From the UHGV virus genome UHGV-1313942: a stretch of DNA of 12,883 bases; one strand, 5' to 3'. Shown in pieces: positions 1,507 through 7,823 of the stretch. Position numbers and translations under genes: made by a program. This DNA is from a virus. The notes below the pieces were generated by a model. It searched no databases, was not told the origin of the DNA, and worked only from the letters and a program-made list of their open reading frames with translations. Each line of letters begins with the position of its first letter. The stretch's first letter is position 1.

Positions 1507-2395
1507 CGTGTTCACCCTCACGAACTTTCAGGTAGGTATTATCGTTAAGCAGGAAATCAAATCCCTTTTTGTGCCAGACGGTTCCGCGCTGATGGTTTGG
1601 GCGCTCTTCGAACATCCATCGGCAATTTTCGCCTACGTAGCTCAAATAATTTCTCCAGTCCTGCATCGTGAAACCATGCCCGTCAAGCTGTCGGGTTATC
1701 ACTCCGGCTTTGCGCCAGAACGTTCGGATCTGGTTTTTACGCTTGTCATTCAGTGCGCGGATTCTTGGCGCTTCAGGAAGGATTTCGTGGTAAGCATCGA
1801 CAACATCCTGACAGCTGACGGAAGGTTTTTTCTTGTCAGACTTTTTGTCTGCTGTGGCACTCTCTAATACGTCAGTATTAGAGATAATATTATTATATTC
1901 TTTATCTGTGGTAATTTGCTGGTAATCTGCTGGTACAGTATTGCTTGCAGGCATTGGTATTGCTGGCTTTGAGGTGGTAATTTGCTGGTAATCTGCTGGT
2001 ACAAAATTTGACTGATAATCGTCATATTTCTCTACCGAGAAAACTGAGAATTTACCGTGTGAAACCCAGTCAATCATGCCGAGTTTTTTGAACTTTCTAA
2101 GCAGGTACTGAACGCGATCTGGTTTGAGTCCTGTTTCAAACGCCAGAGTATTTCTACCGCCAAGTAGCTTCCCTCTGCCTACCAGAATTTCTCCTGCGTC
2201 AGTCATTACATACTCAGGCGTATGCTTTGCTTTGAGGATTAAGTGAACCCACAGATGCGCAGTTTCTGCGTCCTTGTAAAACGGCACATCCATAATTTTA
2301 CGGTGCAGCAAGGCATACCCCTTACCGCTGCTTTGATGCGGTTGTTGTAGCCTTCTGGCCTCTCTGGCTTCGGCTAGATTAGATATGTTACTCAT
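1496..2395 (-). CDS. Replication initiator protein (lambda O / P22 gp18 functional analogue) containing the origin iterons
   Basis: 299-aa ORF immediately upstream of, and overlapping, the helicase gene. Its coding sequence contains directly repeated 11-bp iterons next to an AT-rich stretch, the lambda O/ori-lambda arrangement. Start ATG at 2395 overlaps the stop of the upstream 48-aa ORF. Family of the C-terminal domain not recognised. Confidence 0.75.
1910..2003. repeat. Origin-of-replication iteron array inside the initiator gene
   Basis: Exact 28-bp direct repeat GGTAATTTGCTGGTAATCTGCTGGTACA at 1910-1937 and 1976-2003, each made of two 11-bp iterons GGTAAT(T/C)TGCT; degenerate copies between them (GGTATTGCTGG at 1956-1966). 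Flanked by an AT-rich stretch at about 1876-1905. In protein they encode the duplicated PADYQQITT. Confidence 0.7.
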
Positions 2396-2534
2396 GACCT
2401 TTCTCCTTCTGCATCAGCTTCACTTTTTCCAACTCAGCCCGGAATCGACCAGGCTGCTTGAAGCTGGACAGGAAGCGATCACGTAGTATGTGTTTGTGAA
2501 TTTTGTCCTGGTAAGGACTGAGTTGTTTTGTCAT
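2388..2534 (-). CDS. Small hypothetical protein (48 aa) between cII and the replication initiator
   Basis: Not in the ORF track (below its size cutoff). ATG at 2534 preceded by AGGAG 5 nt upstream; translation [48 protein letters not shown]; stop TAA 2388-2390 overlaps the initiator start codon in an ATGAGTAA arrangement. Confidence 0.5.
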
Positions 2535-2568
2535 AATGACTCCTGTTGATAGATCCAGTCTTTCTACA

Positions 2569-2847
2569 TCAGGCCTCGAAGAATTCGCCGTTCTTCGGGG
2601 CTTTTTCTTTTGTCAGCATTCTGGCTACTTTCTTAGCCAGTTCCGCCAACTCCTCGTCTTCAACACCCCATTCAAGAACAGCCAGAAGCATTCCCATTTT
2701 TGGGATGAAGCTGTCTTTCCATCGCGAAATTTGCGATTCATTAATCCCTAACGCGTCGGCAACCTTTCGCTGACCACGTACAGCAATTCGATTCAGGATG
2801 TTGCTTGTAATTGCATTCGCTTTCTTGCGAGTACTTGTAAGTTGCAT
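2569..2847 (-). CDS. cII: CII-like transcriptional activator (lysogeny establishment)
   Basis: Track ORF 2569..2934 trimmed to the ATG at 2847 (AAGGA RBS about 11 nt upstream); the longer N-terminus would run through the nutR/tR1 region. SQISRWK...[10 protein letters not shown] closely matches lambda CII as I recall it ([25 protein letters not shown]). Position between cro and the replication genes is syntenic. Confidence 0.85.
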
Positions 2848-2905
2848 ATGTAAGTATTTCCTTAACAAATAAGAAGTTATGCGCATCAAATTATGCGCGT
2901 TGTAT

Positions 2906-2949
2906 TCCCGCATTTCGGCGGGAATGAGGACCATGACTGTTAAAGAGCG
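2906..2949 (-). promoter_or_regulatory. nutR antitermination site (boxA + boxB) between cro and cII
   Basis: Minus-strand boxA CGCTCTTTAACA (plus 2938-2949) matches the rrn/lambdoid boxA consensus; boxB hairpin UCCCGC-CGAAAU-GCGGGA (plus 2906-2923) is identical over 18 nt to the boxB upstream of N at 5874-5891. Confidence 0.75.
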
Positions 2950-2957
2950 GGTACTGC

Positions 2958-3176
2958 TTAGGCGGCTTTGTTACTGGATGGAGGGAAAACATCATCCAAA
3001 GAACATTGGCACCCTAACTTCCTGAGGCCTTCTACGATCATTCGGCAATCGTTAAGGCCAGGAGTACGGATATTCAGCTCATAGTTGGCGATGCGGGATT
3101 GCCCCCAACCAATTGCTGAAGCTAGTACAGCTTGCGAAACTCCGATTTTTTTTCGCTGCTGGGCAATTTTGTTCAT
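2958..3176 (-). CDS. cro: Cro-like HTH repressor (XRE family)
   Basis: Track ORF 2958..3215 trimmed to the ATG at 3176 (GGGAG RBS). 72 aa with HTH GVSQAVLASAIGWGQSRIANYE; first gene transcribed from the PR-like promoter, divergent from cI. Confidence 0.75.
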   Translation of the reverse strand: MNKIAQQRKKIGVSQAVLASAIGWGQSRIANYELNIRTPGLNDCRMIVEGLRKLGCQCSLDDVFPPSSNKAA

Positions 3177-3284
3177 TGCGGTCTCCCTAGCATTAATCAC
3201 ACACCCATTACACACAATTTGTGATTAACAGTCAACCTCAATTCGTGTACAGAGTTCAATCACGTTGCGTGTTACATTTAAGGG
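3177..3284. promoter_or_regulatory. OR region: PR (minus strand), PRM (plus strand) and repressor operators
   Basis: PR candidate on minus strand: -35 TTGACT (plus 3230-3235), 17-bp spacer, -10 TGTAAT (plus 3207-3212). The 12-bp palindrome-like CACAATTTGTGA (3213-3224) lies in the PR spacer; a weaker CACGTTGCGTGT copy is at 3261-3272. A possible PRM -10 TACATT (3273-3278) sits immediately upstream of the cI ATG. Confidence 0.7.
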
Positions 3285-3932
3285 ATGAAAACGATGCATG
3301 AAATTATCGGGGAAAGGATCAAGTCCCTTAGAGAAGCTAAAGGACTTAGCCAGGCTCAATTGGCCAAGCTTTGCGGCTGGGCTGCGCCTTCACGCCTGGG
3401 GAACTACGAGTTAGGAACAAGAAAGGTTAGCGCGGATGACGCGCTGGTTCTTGGGGCGGCACTCGGCGTATCTCCGGCAAAAATAATGTTTGGCGAGGAT
3501 TCAGACGCCGTATTTCGCCAATATGAATACCCGTTATTTTCTTCAGTGCAGGCCGGGCCATTTTCGGAGGTGGGAAGCTACACAGCCAGCGATGCAAAGG
3601 CATGGGTCCCAACGACCACAAAAGCCAGCGAAAAAGCTTTCTGGCTTGAGGTGAAGGGGCATTCAATGACGGCGCCTCAGGGGGTTCGTCCAAGTTTTCC
3701 GGAAGGCATGCTGATACTCGTTGATCCGGCTGAGCCGGTAGAGTCTGGGGATTTCTGCGTGGCTTCTGCAAATGGTGATTCAGAGGCAACGTTCAAGAAG
3801 TATGAGAAGGATGCAGGGGTTAGTTACCTGGTACCTTTAAACCCGGCATATAGAACACTGGATTGCGACCATAGCTGCCGCATCATAGGCAAGGTAGTTA
3901 AGGCGCAGTGGCCTGAAGAGACGTTTGGCTGA
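3285..3932 (+). CDS. cI: CI/C2-type prophage repressor with C-terminal S24 (LexA-like) autopeptidase domain
   Basis: N-terminal [25 protein letters not shown]; Ala-Gly cleavage site in SVQAGPF; S24 catalytic Ser in GHSM and Lys in FKK. The C-terminal half aligns with P22 C2 as I recall it. Start could be the ATG at 3285 (possibly leaderless) or 3294. Confidence 0.9.
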
Positions 3933-4082
3933 TCGGCAAGGTGTTCTGGTCGGCGCATAGCTGGTGAAAAAATTATTTAATGCGGTGTATTGGCTGATTG
4001 TAACCCCATGTAACATCTTGCCGTCACCATTTCGGTGGTTAGATTTTTAATAAAAAAAAACAAATGTATAGCAAGGTTTTTT

Positions 4083-4562
4083 ATGGATAAAATTAATTAC
4101 CCACCCCTGTTTGAGCCAGGGTTCCATGACATGGATGAAGCTGGATTAAAATCGTATTGTGTCGATTGCTTTCCTTCATCATCCAGGCGAGGCATGCTAT
4201 ACTGTAATTTTATACAGCTACTCGAATCTATTCGAGAATTATCTGCTCAATATGGCTGTTTTACAGAAATATGGGTTGATGGTTCATACACCACGTCTAA
4301 ACCAGAGCCTGATGATATTGATATTTTGTTGGTATGTGACTATAGCAATATAAACTCAATACCTGTCATGCTTCGGGGCCGCGTCGATAATTTGCTTGAC
4401 CGAAACTACATCAAACAAAACTACAAAATTGATGTCCTACTACTCATGAAGAATTTAGATGACCCTAACTATGATTATGAGTACTGGCGTAGCTACTGGC
4501 GCGGTTGGTTTGGTTTTGATCGCAGTGAAAACCCGAAAGGGTTAGTGAGGATTTTTTTATGA
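4083..4562 (+). CDS. Hypothetical protein with Pol-beta-superfamily nucleotidyltransferase signature (cargo gene 1)
   Basis: Track ORF 4035..4562 (GTG start) trimmed to the ATG at 4083 (AAGG RBS 6 nt upstream; the extension runs through an A9 tract). Residues 67-81 GSYTTSKPEPDDIDI fit the NTase motif hG[GS]-x9-13-Dh[DE]h (nt 4281-4325). AT-rich relative to flanks. Stop overlaps the next start (ATGA). Confidence 0.6.
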   Translation: MDKINYPPLFEPGFHDMDEAGLKSYCVDCFPSSSRRGMLYCNFIQLLESIRELSAQYGCFTEIWVDGSYTTSKPEPDDIDILLVCDYSNINSIPVMLRGRVDNLLDRNYIKQNYKIDVLLLMKNLDDPNYDYEYWRSYWRGWFGFDRSENPKGLVRIFL

Positions 4563-5491
4563 ATGATAAATCAATGTTTAAAAATTGCGATAAACGCATT
4601 GATTTCATTCAAAAAGAAGTCGATGCAATGAAGCAAAACAAAACCAGGTCCTTTGCTGACATGCTTCTTTATCGCTCCATGGATTCTCATCTGAGCGATT
4701 TGAAGGCCGAAAAATTAAAGCAAGATAGTCGGCACCCACTTATCGATTTTTTTGAGCTGCGGCTGAAAGGCTCTGAGGTTGACTTTGGCTCTATTCCTTT
4801 AGAGCTGCTTGGGGCTATTTCAACAAATCTTGCAGCGCTAATACAAAGAGCAACACACAAAATTGCCTCAGGCAAGGACTCAAAAAAAGTTCCCTACGAC
4901 GTGAAAAGCTCCTTAAACCTCAGGCTGGCTGATTTATCCCCTGGGTCTACAAAATTGGGCGTCACCTTCTCTACAGGAATAGCAGAATTAGTAGAAACAG
5001 TACCCAGCAAGGCTGTAAAAGGCATATTCGATTTGTTGTTAAGCGATGACGACAACAACTTCATGAATCACGTCGCTGAAATTGGATACAATTCCACTGT
5101 AAGCCTTAAGAGAATCGTAGAGGAATGCGATAAACACAACTTAACATTTGATGCAAGTTGGACCGGTCCATTTAGTAATGGCACCAAGGTGGCAACTATT
5201 GACTCCAATAAAATTAAGTACTTGGTGAGTAGACTTACATCAACCATTTCATCCCCTCCCATTACTGAAACGGTTACAGGCGAACTGGTCGTTCTATCCA
5301 AATATGGGAAGCTGGAGCTTGATGTTGGTGGTGAACATTTAAAGGCTTCCTATCCGATTGAAATGCTAGATTTAATACAAAAAAAACACAAGGTCGGACA
5401 GATTGTTTCTCTTTTAGTGGAGACTACTGAGATTCACAATGATCGCATAGGTCTGTACCGTAAAAACCATCTTGTTAAATCGGTTCTTTAA
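4559..5491 (+). CDS. Hypothetical 310-aa protein, no family recognised (cargo gene 2)
   Basis: Start ATG overlaps the upstream stop (ATGA at 4559-4562), implying translational coupling; AT-rich; followed directly by an intrinsic terminator. No transmembrane segment or catalytic motif that I recognise. Confidence 0.6.
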   Translation: MNDKSMFKNCDKRIDFIQKEVDAMKQNKTRSFADMLLYRSMDSHLSDLKAEKLKQDSRHPLIDFFELRLKGSEVDFGSIPLELLGAISTNLAALIQRATHKIASGKDSKKVPYDVKSSLNLRLADLSPGSTKLGVTFSTGIAELVETVPSKAVKGIFDLLLSDDDNNFMNHVAEIGYNSTVSLKRIVEECDKHNLTFDASWTGPFSNGTKVATIDSNKIKYLVSRLTSTISSPPITETVTGELVVLSKYGKLELDVGGEHLKASYPIEMLDLIQKKHKVGQIVSLLVETTEIHNDRIGLYRKNHLVKSVL

Positions 5492-5498
5492 TATCTCA

Positions 5499-5523
5499 CC
5501 CGGCCACCGCGCCGGGTTTTTTA
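5499..5523 (+). terminator. Rho-independent terminator ending the cI-cargo transcription unit (t_imm analogue)
   Basis: Stem CCCGGC (5499-5504) / GCCGGG (5511-5516), 6-nt loop, followed by TTTTTTATT (5517-5525); begins 8 nt after the stop at 5489-5491. Confidence 0.8.
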
Positions 5524-5735
5524 TTGTCCGCCGATCACTATCAGGACAGCACCTGCCAGCCGGTCCAAACAATTGATTAAATTACTATAATTCTTAATAC
5601 AACTCCCATATCCCGCCATCTCGCCACCACCACCTTCGCTCGTTTTTCGAACTTTTCAGCACCCATCCTGCTGTTGCCACCGACTTAAGTAAGCAAAACC
5701 ATCGCGGGTAAAACTATTTACACAAAAAAATCATA

Positions 5736-5803
5736 CACATAACGTGTCACACCTTTATTTTACACATTTTGTGATTGACCATTAAATCACAATATGTGAC
5801 TAT
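5736..5803 (+). promoter_or_regulatory. OL/PL region: leftward early promoter with repressor operators
   Basis: Candidate PL: -35 TTGACC (5775-5780), 17-bp spacer, -10 GACTAT (5798-5803). Operator-like 12-mers CACATTTTGTGA (5763-5774) and CACAATATGTGA (5788-5799) match the OR site CACAATTTGTGA; weaker CACATAACGTGT at 5736-5747. Sites are spaced about 25-27 bp apart. Confidence 0.65.
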
Positions 5804-5849
5804 CATTTCCATCAGCAGGACGCTGGTAGCCAAACGGAACATATTGGCA

Positions 5850-5891
5850 GGCTCTTTAACATTGATGGGATTGTCCCGCCGAAATGCGGGA
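5850..5891 (+). promoter_or_regulatory. nutL antitermination site (boxA + boxB)
   Basis: boxA GCTCTTTAACA (5851-5861) and boxB hairpin TCCCGC-CGAAAT-GCGGGA (5874-5891); both identical to the minus-strand nutR elements at 2906-2949. Lies downstream of PL and upstream of N. Confidence 0.75.
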
Positions 5892-6249
5892 ACTGAGTTT
5901 AACAAAACAGGAGGTGCCGTAATGGTGCACTAACGCGGTTAGACCGCAGCCGAAAGGCAATGCAGCAGTAATGATGCTGCCCCGAGTCGCGTAATGGCGA
6001 GCAGGTTTAGCAGACCGATGTGAGGGTAAATAAGGGAACATGCTCCGGAAAGGCAGCGCGAATGCCAGACGCGCACCGGTTATCAGCGGCTAATAAGCGA
6101 CAGAGACTCAAGGGCATGAGCGCGCTCACTGCGAGAGTGTGAGTCAAAGAGTAGTTGGCTTTGGGGTGACGTGAAGTGCAGCTGCACGACGGCAACCGGA
6201 AGATAAGCACCCGGCGCGTCACCGCCAAAGTCAATCATCGGAGGTCAAC

Positions 6250-6522
6250 ATGACAGTAGTCATTACATATCTGGCTGACGATAACGCCAGAAATCGCCGC
6301 AGAGCACGCAGACAGGCTCAACGTGAACAGGCAATGCAAGAGCAGCGACTGGCACGAAAAATTGCGCTAAAGCTCTCTGGTTGCGTCAGAGCAGATAAAG
6401 CAGCATCACTCGGAAGCCTTTGCTGCAAGGAAGAAGATGAACGCAGTGGAAGTATTTGCCTGCCAAACGTAGCCATTTACGCGGCAGGATACCGGAAATC
6501 AAAACAACTGACAGCGAGGTAA
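6250..6522 (+). CDS. N: N-family transcription antiterminator (P22 gene 24-like)
   Basis: 90 aa; N-terminal arginine-rich motif NARNRRRARRQAQREQ typical of boxB-binding N proteins; first gene downstream of PL/nutL; GGAGG RBS 7 nt upstream. C-terminal ...LPNVAIYAAGYRKSKQLTAR resembles my recollection of P22 gp24. Confidence 0.8.
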   Translation: MTVVITYLADDNARNRRRARRQAQREQAMQEQRLARKIALKLSGCVRADKAASLGSLCCKEEDERSGSICLPNVAIYAAGYRKSKQLTAR

Positions 6523-6525
6523 GTG

Positions 6526-6750
6526 ATGAATCAGACATACATTCCATCATGCTTGAGAAATCTGCCAAAGCAGAAAGCAAAGCCCCGCAAGCAAGCCATA
6601 AAGGACGCTAAGGCAGAGGTTATTGATCAAGCAATACAATTGCTCAGGGAGGAGTTAAGAAGTGGCAAGCTCGAAGGAATGATGATGCCCTATCAGCGCG
6701 GATATCTATCGGCGATTAGTAAGTTGGAAGTATTGAAGAGTGAATTATGA
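6526..6750 (+). CDS. Hypothetical small basic protein
   Basis: Track ORF 6523..6750 (GTG) trimmed to the adjacent ATG at 6526; GAGG RBS; Lys-rich; immediately follows the N stop. No family recognised. Confidence 0.5.
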   Translation: MNQTYIPSCLRNLPKQKAKPRKQAIKDAKAEVIDQAIQLLREELRSGKLEGMMMPYQRGYLSAISKLEVLKSEL

Positions 6751-6812
6751 ACTATCTGGAATTTCCGGATGGTTCATTGTTTTGGCAGCAAACCACTTAT
6801 TTGAGGTGATAT

Positions 6813-7262
6813 ATGGAAGAACAAGCAAACAAGATTCTCGTAGAACTACTGCAAAAAGCCAGTAATGGAATAGACGCGGCTGTTTCATTCAGCCAGGCAC
6901 AGATTCCTGATGTTGTTCATCAGTTGCTGCTATGGAATATGGTTGACAGTCTGATTAAAACATTAATGGCCATTCTAACAATCCCACTGGTTTTCTGGTT
7001 TATGAAGAAGCAGTGCCAAAGAGTTGAGACAGGTAAAATCGGTGATGAAGGATATTCATGGGAGAAAGGAAATCCCAAATACATGCCGACAATGGTTTGG
7101 GATAGCAAAGGTGATATTAATCTTCTTATCATGCCATTGGTTGTAGTTTTGACTCTGTGGGGGATTTTTATTATTGGTGTAGTAACCAATATGACTTGGT
7201 TAAAAATTTGGCTGGCCCCAAAGCTTTACCTTATCGAATATGCAGCATCATTGGTTAAGTAA
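6813..7262 (+). CDS. Hypothetical membrane protein with two predicted TM helices (possible superinfection-exclusion-type cargo)
   Basis: 149 aa; hydrophobic segments LIKTLMAILTIPLVFWFM and LLIMPLVVVLTLWGIFIIGVV; GAGGTG RBS; AT-rich; followed directly by a terminator. Occupies the post-N position where lambdoid phages carry ral/sieB-type accessory genes. Function is inference only. Confidence 0.55.
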   Translation: MEEQANKILVELLQKASNGIDAAVSFSQAQIPDVVHQLLLWNMVDSLIKTLMAILTIPLVFWFMKKQCQRVETGKIGDEGYSWEKGNPKYMPTMVWDSKGDINLLIMPLVVVLTLWGIFIIGVVTNMTWLKIWLAPKLYLIEYAASLVK

Positions 7263-7266
7263 TTTC

Positions 7267-7291
7267 AGGCCGCATAGTCGGCCTTTATTTT
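7267..7291 (+). terminator. Rho-independent terminator (tL1-like) after the membrane-protein gene
   Basis: Stem AGGCCG (7267-7272) / CGGCCT (7279-7284), loop CATAGT, followed by the T-rich tract TTTATTTT. Confidence 0.7.
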
Positions 7292-7314
7292 GGGCATAAA
7301 CAACAGAGGTGAAT

Positions 7315-7602
7315 ATGAAAGAGTTTAAGGGTACGCCTGGTAAATGGAAGTACACGGTTAGAAACGTCAACGAGATGATGACTACGTTCCATGGTGTGAC
7401 GATTGGTGACACATACATTGAAGCAGCAACAAGAAATGAAAGGGAGGATGCGCTACTGATAGCGGCAGCACCTGACCTTCTCGAAGCACTTCAGTTATTA
7501 CTTAAGCAATCCAAAAATAGAACAACGACAACATATCCAGAATGGTATGAAGCTGTTAATAAAGGTCTTGCAGCAATCAGAAAAGCTCTTGGGGATAAGT
7601 AA
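7315..7602 (+). CDS. Hypothetical phage protein
   Basis: Track ORF 7309..7602 (GTG) trimmed to the ATG at 7315 with AGAGG RBS 5 nt upstream. No family recognised. Confidence 0.55.
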   Translation: MKEFKGTPGKWKYTVRNVNEMMTTFHGVTIGDTYIEAATRNEREDALLIAAAPDLLEALQLLLKQSKNRTTTTYPEWYEAVNKGLAAIRKALGDK

Positions 7603-7790
7603 TGAAAGTAAAAATAACTGCTTCTAATACCAGTTTTGTTAGTGTTGGTGATATTACAGAAGTAATAACAAACCATGATGGAACCCAAGTTATGTGGTCT
7701 GATTTTTGTAAAAGATATGAGCGAGTCACTTGGTGTAAACTCGTATGGGGCGTCGAATACGAAGAATTACCTGAAATGCATGACGAATAA
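7602..7790 (+). CDS. Hypothetical small phage protein
   Basis: 62 aa; start ATG overlaps the upstream stop (TAATG), implying translational coupling. No family recognised. Confidence 0.5.
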   Translation: MKVKITASNTSFVSVGDITEVITNHDGTQVMWSDFCKRYERVTWCKLVWGVEYEELPEMHDE

Positions 7791-7795
7791 GCACT

Positions 7796-7823
7796 GTGTA
7801 TTCATTCCAACGAGTGAATACAC
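7796..7823. repeat. Perfect 9-bp inverted repeat with 10-nt spacer (RNA hairpin or protein-binding site)
   Basis: GTGTATTCA (7796-7804) and TGAATACAC (7815-7823); not followed by a U-tract; lies in the intergenic region upstream of the cIII-proximal terminator. Confidence 0.45.

Follow-up and report, generated by a model that had tools for sequence, protein, structure and literature searches.

The interval between the cI repressor gene and the antiterminator gene N of lambdoid phages is a known mosaic hotspot that houses the cargo genes rexAB and bstA, and the mechanism of rexAB, its classic occupant, is still poorly understood (PMC8585504). The slot beside cI is the best-known site for exclusion genes expressed in the lysogen. 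Here we analyse a stretch of 12,883 nucleotides (nt) of the virus genome UHGV-1313942 (hereinafter the window), which covers a lambdoid prophage's immunity and early region and whose + strand runs in the leftward direction of lambda. Its slot holds two genes on the + strand, hereinafter designated A (4083..4562; 159 amino acids (aa)) and B (4559..5491; 310 aa). Protein A is a predicted minimal nucleotidyltransferase (NTase) of the DNA polymerase β (pol-β) type, and protein B is soluble by hydropathy. The pair lies exactly where lambda carries rexA-rexB, and both proteins fall into a family that databases list as a defence candidate.

The replacement of rexAB is evident from alignments on both sides of the pair. 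A 58-nt block is 100% identical between the window and lambda; 27 nt of it end cI and the other 31 nt follow the cI stop. Lambda homology returns at the final base of the rexB stop codon and covers the terminator (91% over 23 nt). Phage VT1-Sakai is 99.8% identical over positions 2942-3965 (cro, the right operator OR and the annotated cI plus 33 nt past its stop) and 96.5% identical over 5500-5865 (terminator, left operator OL, leftward promoter PL and nutL), and between both shared blocks it carries a different, 939-nt cargo. The annotation of VT1-Sakai labels the shared hairpin 'putative rho-independent terminator for pRM transcript', that is, for transcripts from the promoter for repressor maintenance (PRM). 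The reciprocal arrangements also exist. Two IMG/VR phages (L014 and L016) possess a genuine lambda cI and lambda OL/PL flanking A-B in place of rexA-rexB, with lambda homology in L016 breaking at precisely both junction points of the window, and phage HK544 combines a lambda cI with the VT1-Sakai-type alternative cargo, present as two genes. In 12 phages with a near-identical cassette, homology runs from the lambda-type cI 3' end to just past the terminator.

Judged by these breakpoints in lambda, VT1-Sakai and the 12 cassette phages, the mobile unit is 3966-5497 on the + strand, and it recombines through a left junction at 3906..3965 (the last 27 nt of cI and 31-33 nt of lambda-type cI-rexA spacer) and a right junction at 5498..5523 (the terminator homologous to the post-rexB terminator of lambda). 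A-B is almost certainly a swappable moron, carried as cargo in the rexAB slot. An earlier note, made from the letters of this DNA, had placed the pair in the rexAB position between cI and OL/PL and regarded it as an acquired moron, and both statements hold: A-B and lambda rexAB have identical junctions, and the same cI/OL/PL backbone bears other cargo in VT1-Sakai. The comparison of the cI-OL interval across related prophages that it had proposed likewise reveals different cargo on shared backbones (lambda, VT1-Sakai, HK544, L014 and L016). The window as a whole is a mosaic, at most 61% of which is covered by any single complete genome. Within the literature searched, the exact replacement of rexAB on lambda and VT1-Sakai backbones appears to be new.

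Two side observations concern the same interval. The last ~25 nt of the lambda-type cI (window 3908-3932, GTGGCCTGAAGAGACGTTTGG) occur as a non-coding remnant behind unrelated repressor genes wherever the cassette is found, and equivalents of this cI 3'-end remnant lie upstream of gene A in L012, L015, L017, L018, L020, L022, L024 and L026; the remnant resembles a fossil linker for recombination, moving together with the cargo. The alternative cargo itself spans 3534-4472 in VT1-Sakai (L078) and 3123-3962 in HK544 (L079) and encodes ECs2991/ECs2992-like proteins of 93 and 183 aa. Neither this cargo nor the other window open reading frames (ORFs) tested gave a PADLOC match, and we list the VT1-Sakai/HK544 cargo as a further candidate occupant of the rexAB position.

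A and B overlap by 4 nt (ATGA, 4559-4562). A Shine-Dalgarno sequence, AAGG at 4073-4076, stands 6 nt before the ATG of gene A, and GAGGA at 4547-4551 lies upstream of the start of gene B. The start of A is assigned to ATG 4083 and not to GTG 4035, because the PHROG, PADLOC and Pfam profiles begin at residue 1 of the 159-aa form and because the AAGG precedes this codon. Downstream of B, an intrinsic terminator on the + strand (5498..5523) consists of a stem at 5498-5517 with 7 pairs, 6 of them G-C, followed by T6, and has a folding energy of -13.7 kcal/mol (z-score (z) -3.1). The spacer between the cI stop at 3932 and gene A is 150 nt long and includes the cassette leader (3966..4082, +), which is AT-rich and contains a weak hairpin, an A-run and the Shine-Dalgarno sequence; this leader is conserved in 12 of 12 compared phages, whichever repressor they have. 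The A-run (4052-4060), just before gene A, varies from 7 to 9 A among the otherwise identical leaders of the 12 phages.

Nothing in the spacer convincingly separates the cassette from cI. The hairpin at 4020-4039 (-7.2 kcal/mol, z -1.7) was rejected as a terminator, being too weak (14 of 200 shuffled sequences were equally stable) and lacking a clean U-run, and a motif scan found no promoter-like site between cI and A. Within 2900-6400 the scan picked up just two promoter-like sites, both of them in gene A with scores of 9/12, and shuffled sequences give more such sites, so an internal promoter was also rejected, as was a structured RNA in the leader, since the window has no Rfam match and the folding of the leader does not exceed that of shuffles (z -1.4). 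Taken together, the synteny, a spacer with neither a promoter nor a convincing terminator and the shared PRM-transcript terminator suggest that the cassette is transcribed with cI in the lysogen from PRM, and from the promoter for repressor establishment (PRE), and translated as a coupled pair. The earlier note had read the region in the same way: its two coupled genes with an ATGA overlap, its lack of a recognisable terminator between cI and the pair and its strong intrinsic terminator before OL/PL are all found, and so is the AT-richness it had attributed to the pair relative to cI. The GC content is 40.2% for A and B, 52.3% for cI and 46.1% for the remaining window, which ranks the cassette within the bottom 1% of windows of its size; the segment 6900-7800 is about as AT-rich.

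Database searches assign the pair to a family that is already catalogued. In the literature searched, the names DUF6932 and PF22014 were found nowhere, PDC-M63 was found in a single work and the papers on phage mEpX1 treat subjects other than this locus. A matches Pfam DUF6932 (PF22014) at 87.3 bits, the cut-off being 27 (residues 8-157 on profile positions 7-141 of 142), PADLOC PDC-M63A (PDLC04744) with E 1.8e-41 (residues 1-158 on 1-148 of 152) and PHROG phrog_9194 with E 2.3e-64. B matches PADLOC PDC-M63B (PDLC04749) with E 7.5e-45 (residues 23-304 on 20-300 of 309) and phrog_6603, and belongs to no family in Pfam or NCBIfam. In every feature that can be tested, the pair counts as a member of PDC-M63 / DUF6932. 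At the DNA level the cassette is 99.8% identical to gp42/gp41 of mEpX1, both annotated 'hypothetical', and it is present at full length in 18 of 5,426 complete E. coli genomes. PADLOC, the search that the earlier note had named as a check, therefore places both proteins in candidate system PDC-M63, 'PDC' entries being unvalidated computational candidates. The note's description of an uncharacterised candidate defence or exclusion system stands in so far as the pair is an uncharacterised candidate; it is not new, having been catalogued as PADLOC PDC-M63, Pfam DUF6932 and mEpX1 gp42/gp41. Its further statement that neither protein is RexA, RexB or a named defence protein agrees with the Pfam, PADLOC, PHROGs and NCBIfam searches, in which identities as RexA/RexB (E up to 1), HEPN, Stk and SieB were considered and found no match. 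Among the named defence models in PADLOC, none matches A or B at E up to 1 except a sub-threshold DrmC, with the presence of a BstA model in the release unchecked.

The two genes form a stable unit across the family. Of 76 loci containing a member of the family, 74 have A directly upstream of B: 70 of the 71 from one scan (70 fetched loci plus the window), and L072, L073, L075 and L077. The exceptions are L064, where the sequence is cut at its 5' end, and L074, where B is absent and A, with a damaged C terminus, adjoins an insertion sequence (IS) element. The two genes overlap by 4 nt in every enterobacterial locus; in distant loci they overlap by 14 or 4 nt or stand 10 nt apart, and the pair is kept down to ~35% identity for A. 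Because adjacency and overlap or tight spacing recur in these 74 of 76 loci, the pairing goes beyond chance. Of 57 phage loci that extend far enough upstream, 52 have a repressor-type gene immediately before the pair on the same strand; 44 of these repressors are S24-type (14 clusters with <60% mutual identity) and 8 are HTH_3-only. One distant pair, whose A is 41% identical, follows another S24 repressor that is divergent from a cro-like gene. In a few loci (L007 6152-6391 and L033 5794-6039), the cassette is found beside a ~80-aa gene, DinI-like by eye, and not behind a repressor. The repressor-adjacent position is frequent, not obligatory.

Three distinct chromosomal loci were examined (L003 duplicates L002). 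The pair adjoins a YoeB/Phd toxin-antitoxin pair and a type I restriction-modification (R-M) system in L004, a PDC-S37/Hhe-like giant helicase in L005 and an ImuB/DnaE2 mutasome cassette in L002. Several copies are damaged. At 7660-7670 of L070, the loss of 1 nt from an A-run splits B, which is otherwise 99.8% identical; the split may reflect a real pseudogene or a homopolymer assembly error. In a Klebsiella pneumoniae prophage (L077, CP155670.1, region 2217-4423), a gene for a 495-aa RVT_1 reverse transcriptase on the opposite strand lies between the S24 repressor and the cassette; the insert replaces approximately the first 40 codons of A and leaves B intact, cut off from the repressor promoter. 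We considered solo and broken copies (L070, L077 and L074) as a clue to which partner is toxic and rejected them, given the possible assembly error, the insert and the IS damage.

In protein A, the residues invariant among 43 sequences reaching down to 35% identity are G67-S68, D78-x-D80 (D78-I-D80 in the window), R136-S-Y-W-R-G141 and F143; the third acidic residue, D117, is shared by at least 90% of them. By the motifs hG[GS] and D-x-D and the third acidic residue, A is assigned to the pol-β NTase superfamily, consistent with some relatives that also match PF01909 or bear the name 'predicted nucleotidyltransferase'. We propose that A is catalytically active because neither G-S nor D-x-D varies and conservation of the third acidic residue reaches at least 90%. 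The AlphaFold2 model of A has a predicted local distance difference test (pLDDT) score of 96. In Foldseek comparisons with the Protein Data Bank (PDB), its top matches are the minimal NTase 2rff and the minimal nucleotidyltransferase (MNT) antitoxins 7ae2_B and 7ae9, with probabilities of 0.87-0.96 for these three, followed by MntA (7bxo), CdnC, AAD(9) and pol-β. Pol-β-type NTases account for 9 of the 10 top matches, but with E of at least 2.5e-3 and template-modelling (TM) scores of 0.23-0.37. Residues 136-156 (4488-4550; RSYWRGWFGF.R.E.PKG) also align with RSYWLGGW...DEK.SG of ribosome modulation factor (PDB 2jrm) at a non-significant E of 0.24; this likeness of the C-terminal motif may be a hint of RNA binding or may be chance.

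Protein B is predicted to consist of N-terminal helices, an alpha/beta middle domain and a C-terminal oligonucleotide/oligosaccharide-binding (OB) fold at residues ~229-309, modelled as a five-stranded barrel in which a helix separates the third strand from the fourth. Only one residue, Ser130, is invariant among 126 sequences of 20-30% identity. It belongs to a hairpin whose tip carries a G-S-T motif. No internal part of the model is less confident than the loop just before it (124-129; pLDDT <50), and Ser130 is predicted to reside in a flexible, exposed loop. Both the single invariant Ser130 and the OB fold of B appear to be new within the literature searched. For the middle domain, Foldseek yields weak matches to class III adenylyl cyclases, to a protein resembling Thg1 and to Cas10 (E 0.02-0.3, probability at most 0.54), and we take the possible palm-like beta-alpha-beta-beta-alpha-beta fold as no more than a lead. 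Residues 62-146 (4742-4996), the first half of this domain, match the N terminus of the PADLOC candidate PDC-M32A with E 3.4e-5, and the Ser-loop module may be common to several candidate systems.

Sequence searches otherwise return only the family of B itself. PDB profile searches with alignments of 36 and 126 B sequences gave nothing below E 0.008, a Pfam scan of the 126 members gave scattered single matches and no match to SSB (a protein that binds single-stranded DNA), and a middle-domain profile run against 5.8 billion proteins retrieved only the same ~310-aa 'hypothetical' family. This family comprises 268 clusters at 50% identity (HMMER, 1.84 billion representatives), nearly all of 300-320 aa and without fusions, and includes a member from a Hodarchaeales (Asgard archaeal) metagenome-assembled genome. 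The maximum 19-residue Kyte-Doolittle means are 1.25 for A and 1.38 for B. Neither protein has a hydrophobic segment, and a transmembrane effector like RexB or HalA was rejected on this ground.

The slot, the candidate status in PADLOC and the defence genes near other copies lead us to infer that A-B probably has an anti-phage role in the lysogen, exerted by exclusion or abortive infection. As to how, we tentatively suggest that A may act covalently on B at Ser130, a possibility for which we would claim no more than a fair hearing. In such a scheme, A, an active minimal NTase, would take its partner B as substrate and transfer one or a few nucleotides onto Ser130 in the flexible hairpin loop, and this mark would hold B inactive, as AMPylation by MNT does HEPN toxins in type VII toxin-antitoxin systems. 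Infection would lower the activity or supply of A, for instance by shutting off transcription, by depleting nucleotides or by means of a phage inhibitor. B would then accumulate in unmodified form and bind single-stranded nucleic acid, for example replication or recombination intermediates, and the growth of the phage or the cell would be arrested. We favour a type VII-like logic because A resembles MNT in size, gene order and best structural matches, and because the sole invariant residue of B is a serine in a flexible loop. In a variant that we think improbable, A-B would be a guard of a new type, with a covalent mark on the effector as its signal: a nucleotide attached by A to Ser130, or a short oligonucleotide that A primes there, would fill B's own OB fold and auto-inhibit it, and phage nucleases, phosphodiesterases or nucleotide depletion would strip the tether and free a soluble effector that binds single-stranded DNA (ssDNA). 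Such a Ser130-tether system would be a soluble covalent counterpart of Hailong and type VII systems and a functional replacement of rexAB.

Several observations weigh against modification of B by A and against a defence role. The structural matches of A to MNT are weak (best E 2.5e-3; TM 0.27-0.37). No HEPN or other recognisable toxin domain was found in B by a Pfam scan of its 126 members, and the invariant serine could equally be catalytic or structural. In addition, published deletion of PDC-M63AB from its native host E. coli NILS69 left the infectivity of 10 virulent phages unchanged.

Modification of B by A is one of several arrangements that an NTase and an OB-fold protein could adopt. 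The roles could be reversed, with the OB fold of B sensing phage ssDNA or SSB-coated intermediates and activating A, which would nucleotidylylate a cellular target, for example the 3' ends of tRNA or rRNA in the manner of MenT or AbiEii, and stop growth. This is unlikely: A is far smaller than known NTase toxins, its nearest structures are MNT antitoxins and not MenT or AbiEii, and the invariant Ser130 of B would be left without a role. A Hailong-like guard seems rather doubtful as well. In Hailong, HalB primes oligo-dA on a tyrosine and DNA represses the partner (PMC13434031). By analogy, A would constitutively make a short oligonucleotide primed on its own Tyr138 or on Ser130 of B, B would be off while its OB fold is occupied, and phage nucleases would release it. 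The two-gene operon that joins an NTase to a protein with a predicted ssDNA-binding fold is consistent with such a guard, as is the invariant tyrosine near the C terminus of A. However, HalB is absent both from the PDB profile matches (E up to 10) and from the top 50 Foldseek matches of A, B has no transmembrane or channel domain (maximum Kyte-Doolittle 1.38), and the gene order and partner architecture are both different.

The pair could also serve an end other than phage defence, riding the highly expressed slot as a toxin-antitoxin-like addiction or prophage-stabilisation module or as a lysogenic conversion function acting on host nucleic-acid metabolism. The sole published test showed no defence phenotype, the 'PDC' entries of PADLOC await validation, and one chromosomal copy stands beside the ImuB/DnaE2 mutasome and not beside defence genes. 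We nevertheless give this explanation only a small chance, given that the slot is known to house abortive-infection systems, that two of the three distinct chromosomal loci lie beside R-M or candidate defence genes and that the negative result covers 10 virulent phages only. Defence systems of prophages are often aimed at temperate phages. Phage DNA metabolism makes wide use of NTase and OB-fold proteins, and this, together with the proximity of the module to PL and recombination genes, speaks for a part in lytic growth or its establishment, for instance as a counter-defence factor or a nucleic-acid-modifying replication accessory. Such a part is very improbable, since the cassette lies upstream of PL, on the side of the cI transcript, and is closed by the PRM-transcript terminator; the family also occurs outside phages, beside R-M and toxin-antitoxin genes.

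The neighbours of the cassette are those of a lambdoid immunity region. The cI repressor gene (3285..3932, +) matches Pfam Peptidase_S24 (3.1e-26) and HTH_31 (2.4e-11), and the - strand carries genes for a DnaB-like helicase, an O-like replication protein and cII as well as a cro-like gene. Beyond the terminator, three OL operators on the + strand (~5733-5749, 5760-5776 and 5785-5801) were placed by identity to the annotated VT1-Sakai, and the same annotation locates PL (+), with a -35 element TTGACC at 5775-5780 and a -10 element GACTAT at 5798-5803. The first gene of the PL operon encodes the N antiterminator (6250..6522, +; Pfam N_peptide 5.1e-15). Just past N, within an AT-rich patch at 6750-7800 (~38-41% GC), an ORF at 6813-7262 (+) encodes a 149-aa protein of phrog_3054 that has two strongly hydrophobic stretches by eye and no PADLOC match. 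Its position is roughly that in which exclusion genes of the sieB type are found in lambdoid phages.

Nature provides an isogenic set in which the lambda cI/OL/PL backbone carries rexAB (lambda), A-B (L014 and L016) or another pair (HK544), and the cI backbone of the window likewise exists with A-B or with the VT1-Sakai cargo; function is therefore directly testable by a cassette swap in a lambda lysogen. If A-B defends, a PADLOC candidate family of ~270 clusters (50% identity) that reaches Asgard archaea would be validated, and an NTase system with a soluble OB-fold partner bearing one invariant serine would be added, a combination outside CBASS, HEPN-MNT, AbiE/MenT and Hailong. If it does not, the pair would usefully contradict the rule by which cargo in this slot is equated with defence.

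Comparison with known systems places the pair as follows. From the PDC-M63 entries, including mEpX1 gp42/gp41, A-B does not differ: both profiles are matched at near full length by adjacent genes on the same strand, and the pair is of the same family. With lambda rexA-rexB it shares the slot, the junctions and the organisation as a two-gene unit on the cI strand, and presumably the regulation. RexB, by contrast, is a membrane protein (PMC8585504), whereas A and B are both without a hydrophobic segment. BstA of the Salmonella prophage BTP1 is similar in being cargo directly downstream of cI that is tied to repressor loci across diverse phages and has its own terminator (PMC8585504), but it is a single protein and not a pair.

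The mechanistic parallels lie elsewhere. In HEPN-MNT type VII systems (MntA-HepT; 7ae2, 7ae9 and 7bxo), as in A-B, a small pol-β-type NTase is encoded first and overlaps the gene of its partner; the NTases are of similar size (A, 159 aa), the catalytic G-S and D-x-D are intact in A, and the known NTases AMPylate their partner, according to PDB entry titles. To our knowledge, MNT proteins do not have the extra invariant C-terminal motif of A. The partners also differ: B is without an Rx4-6H motif, matches a HEPN profile in one of 126 members (E 0.005) and is predicted to have an OB fold instead. Hailong (HalA-HalB) is likewise a two-gene NTase operon in which the partner binds ssDNA, as the predicted OB fold of B might, and a tyrosine lies near the C terminus of the NTase; unlike it, A-B displays no detected HalB homology and has a soluble partner with an OB fold in place of the transmembrane ion channel HalA. 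We rate A-B among the two-gene NTase-based conflict modules. It occupies the niche of rexAB and bstA, and it may work like HEPN-MNT or Hailong while belonging to neither.

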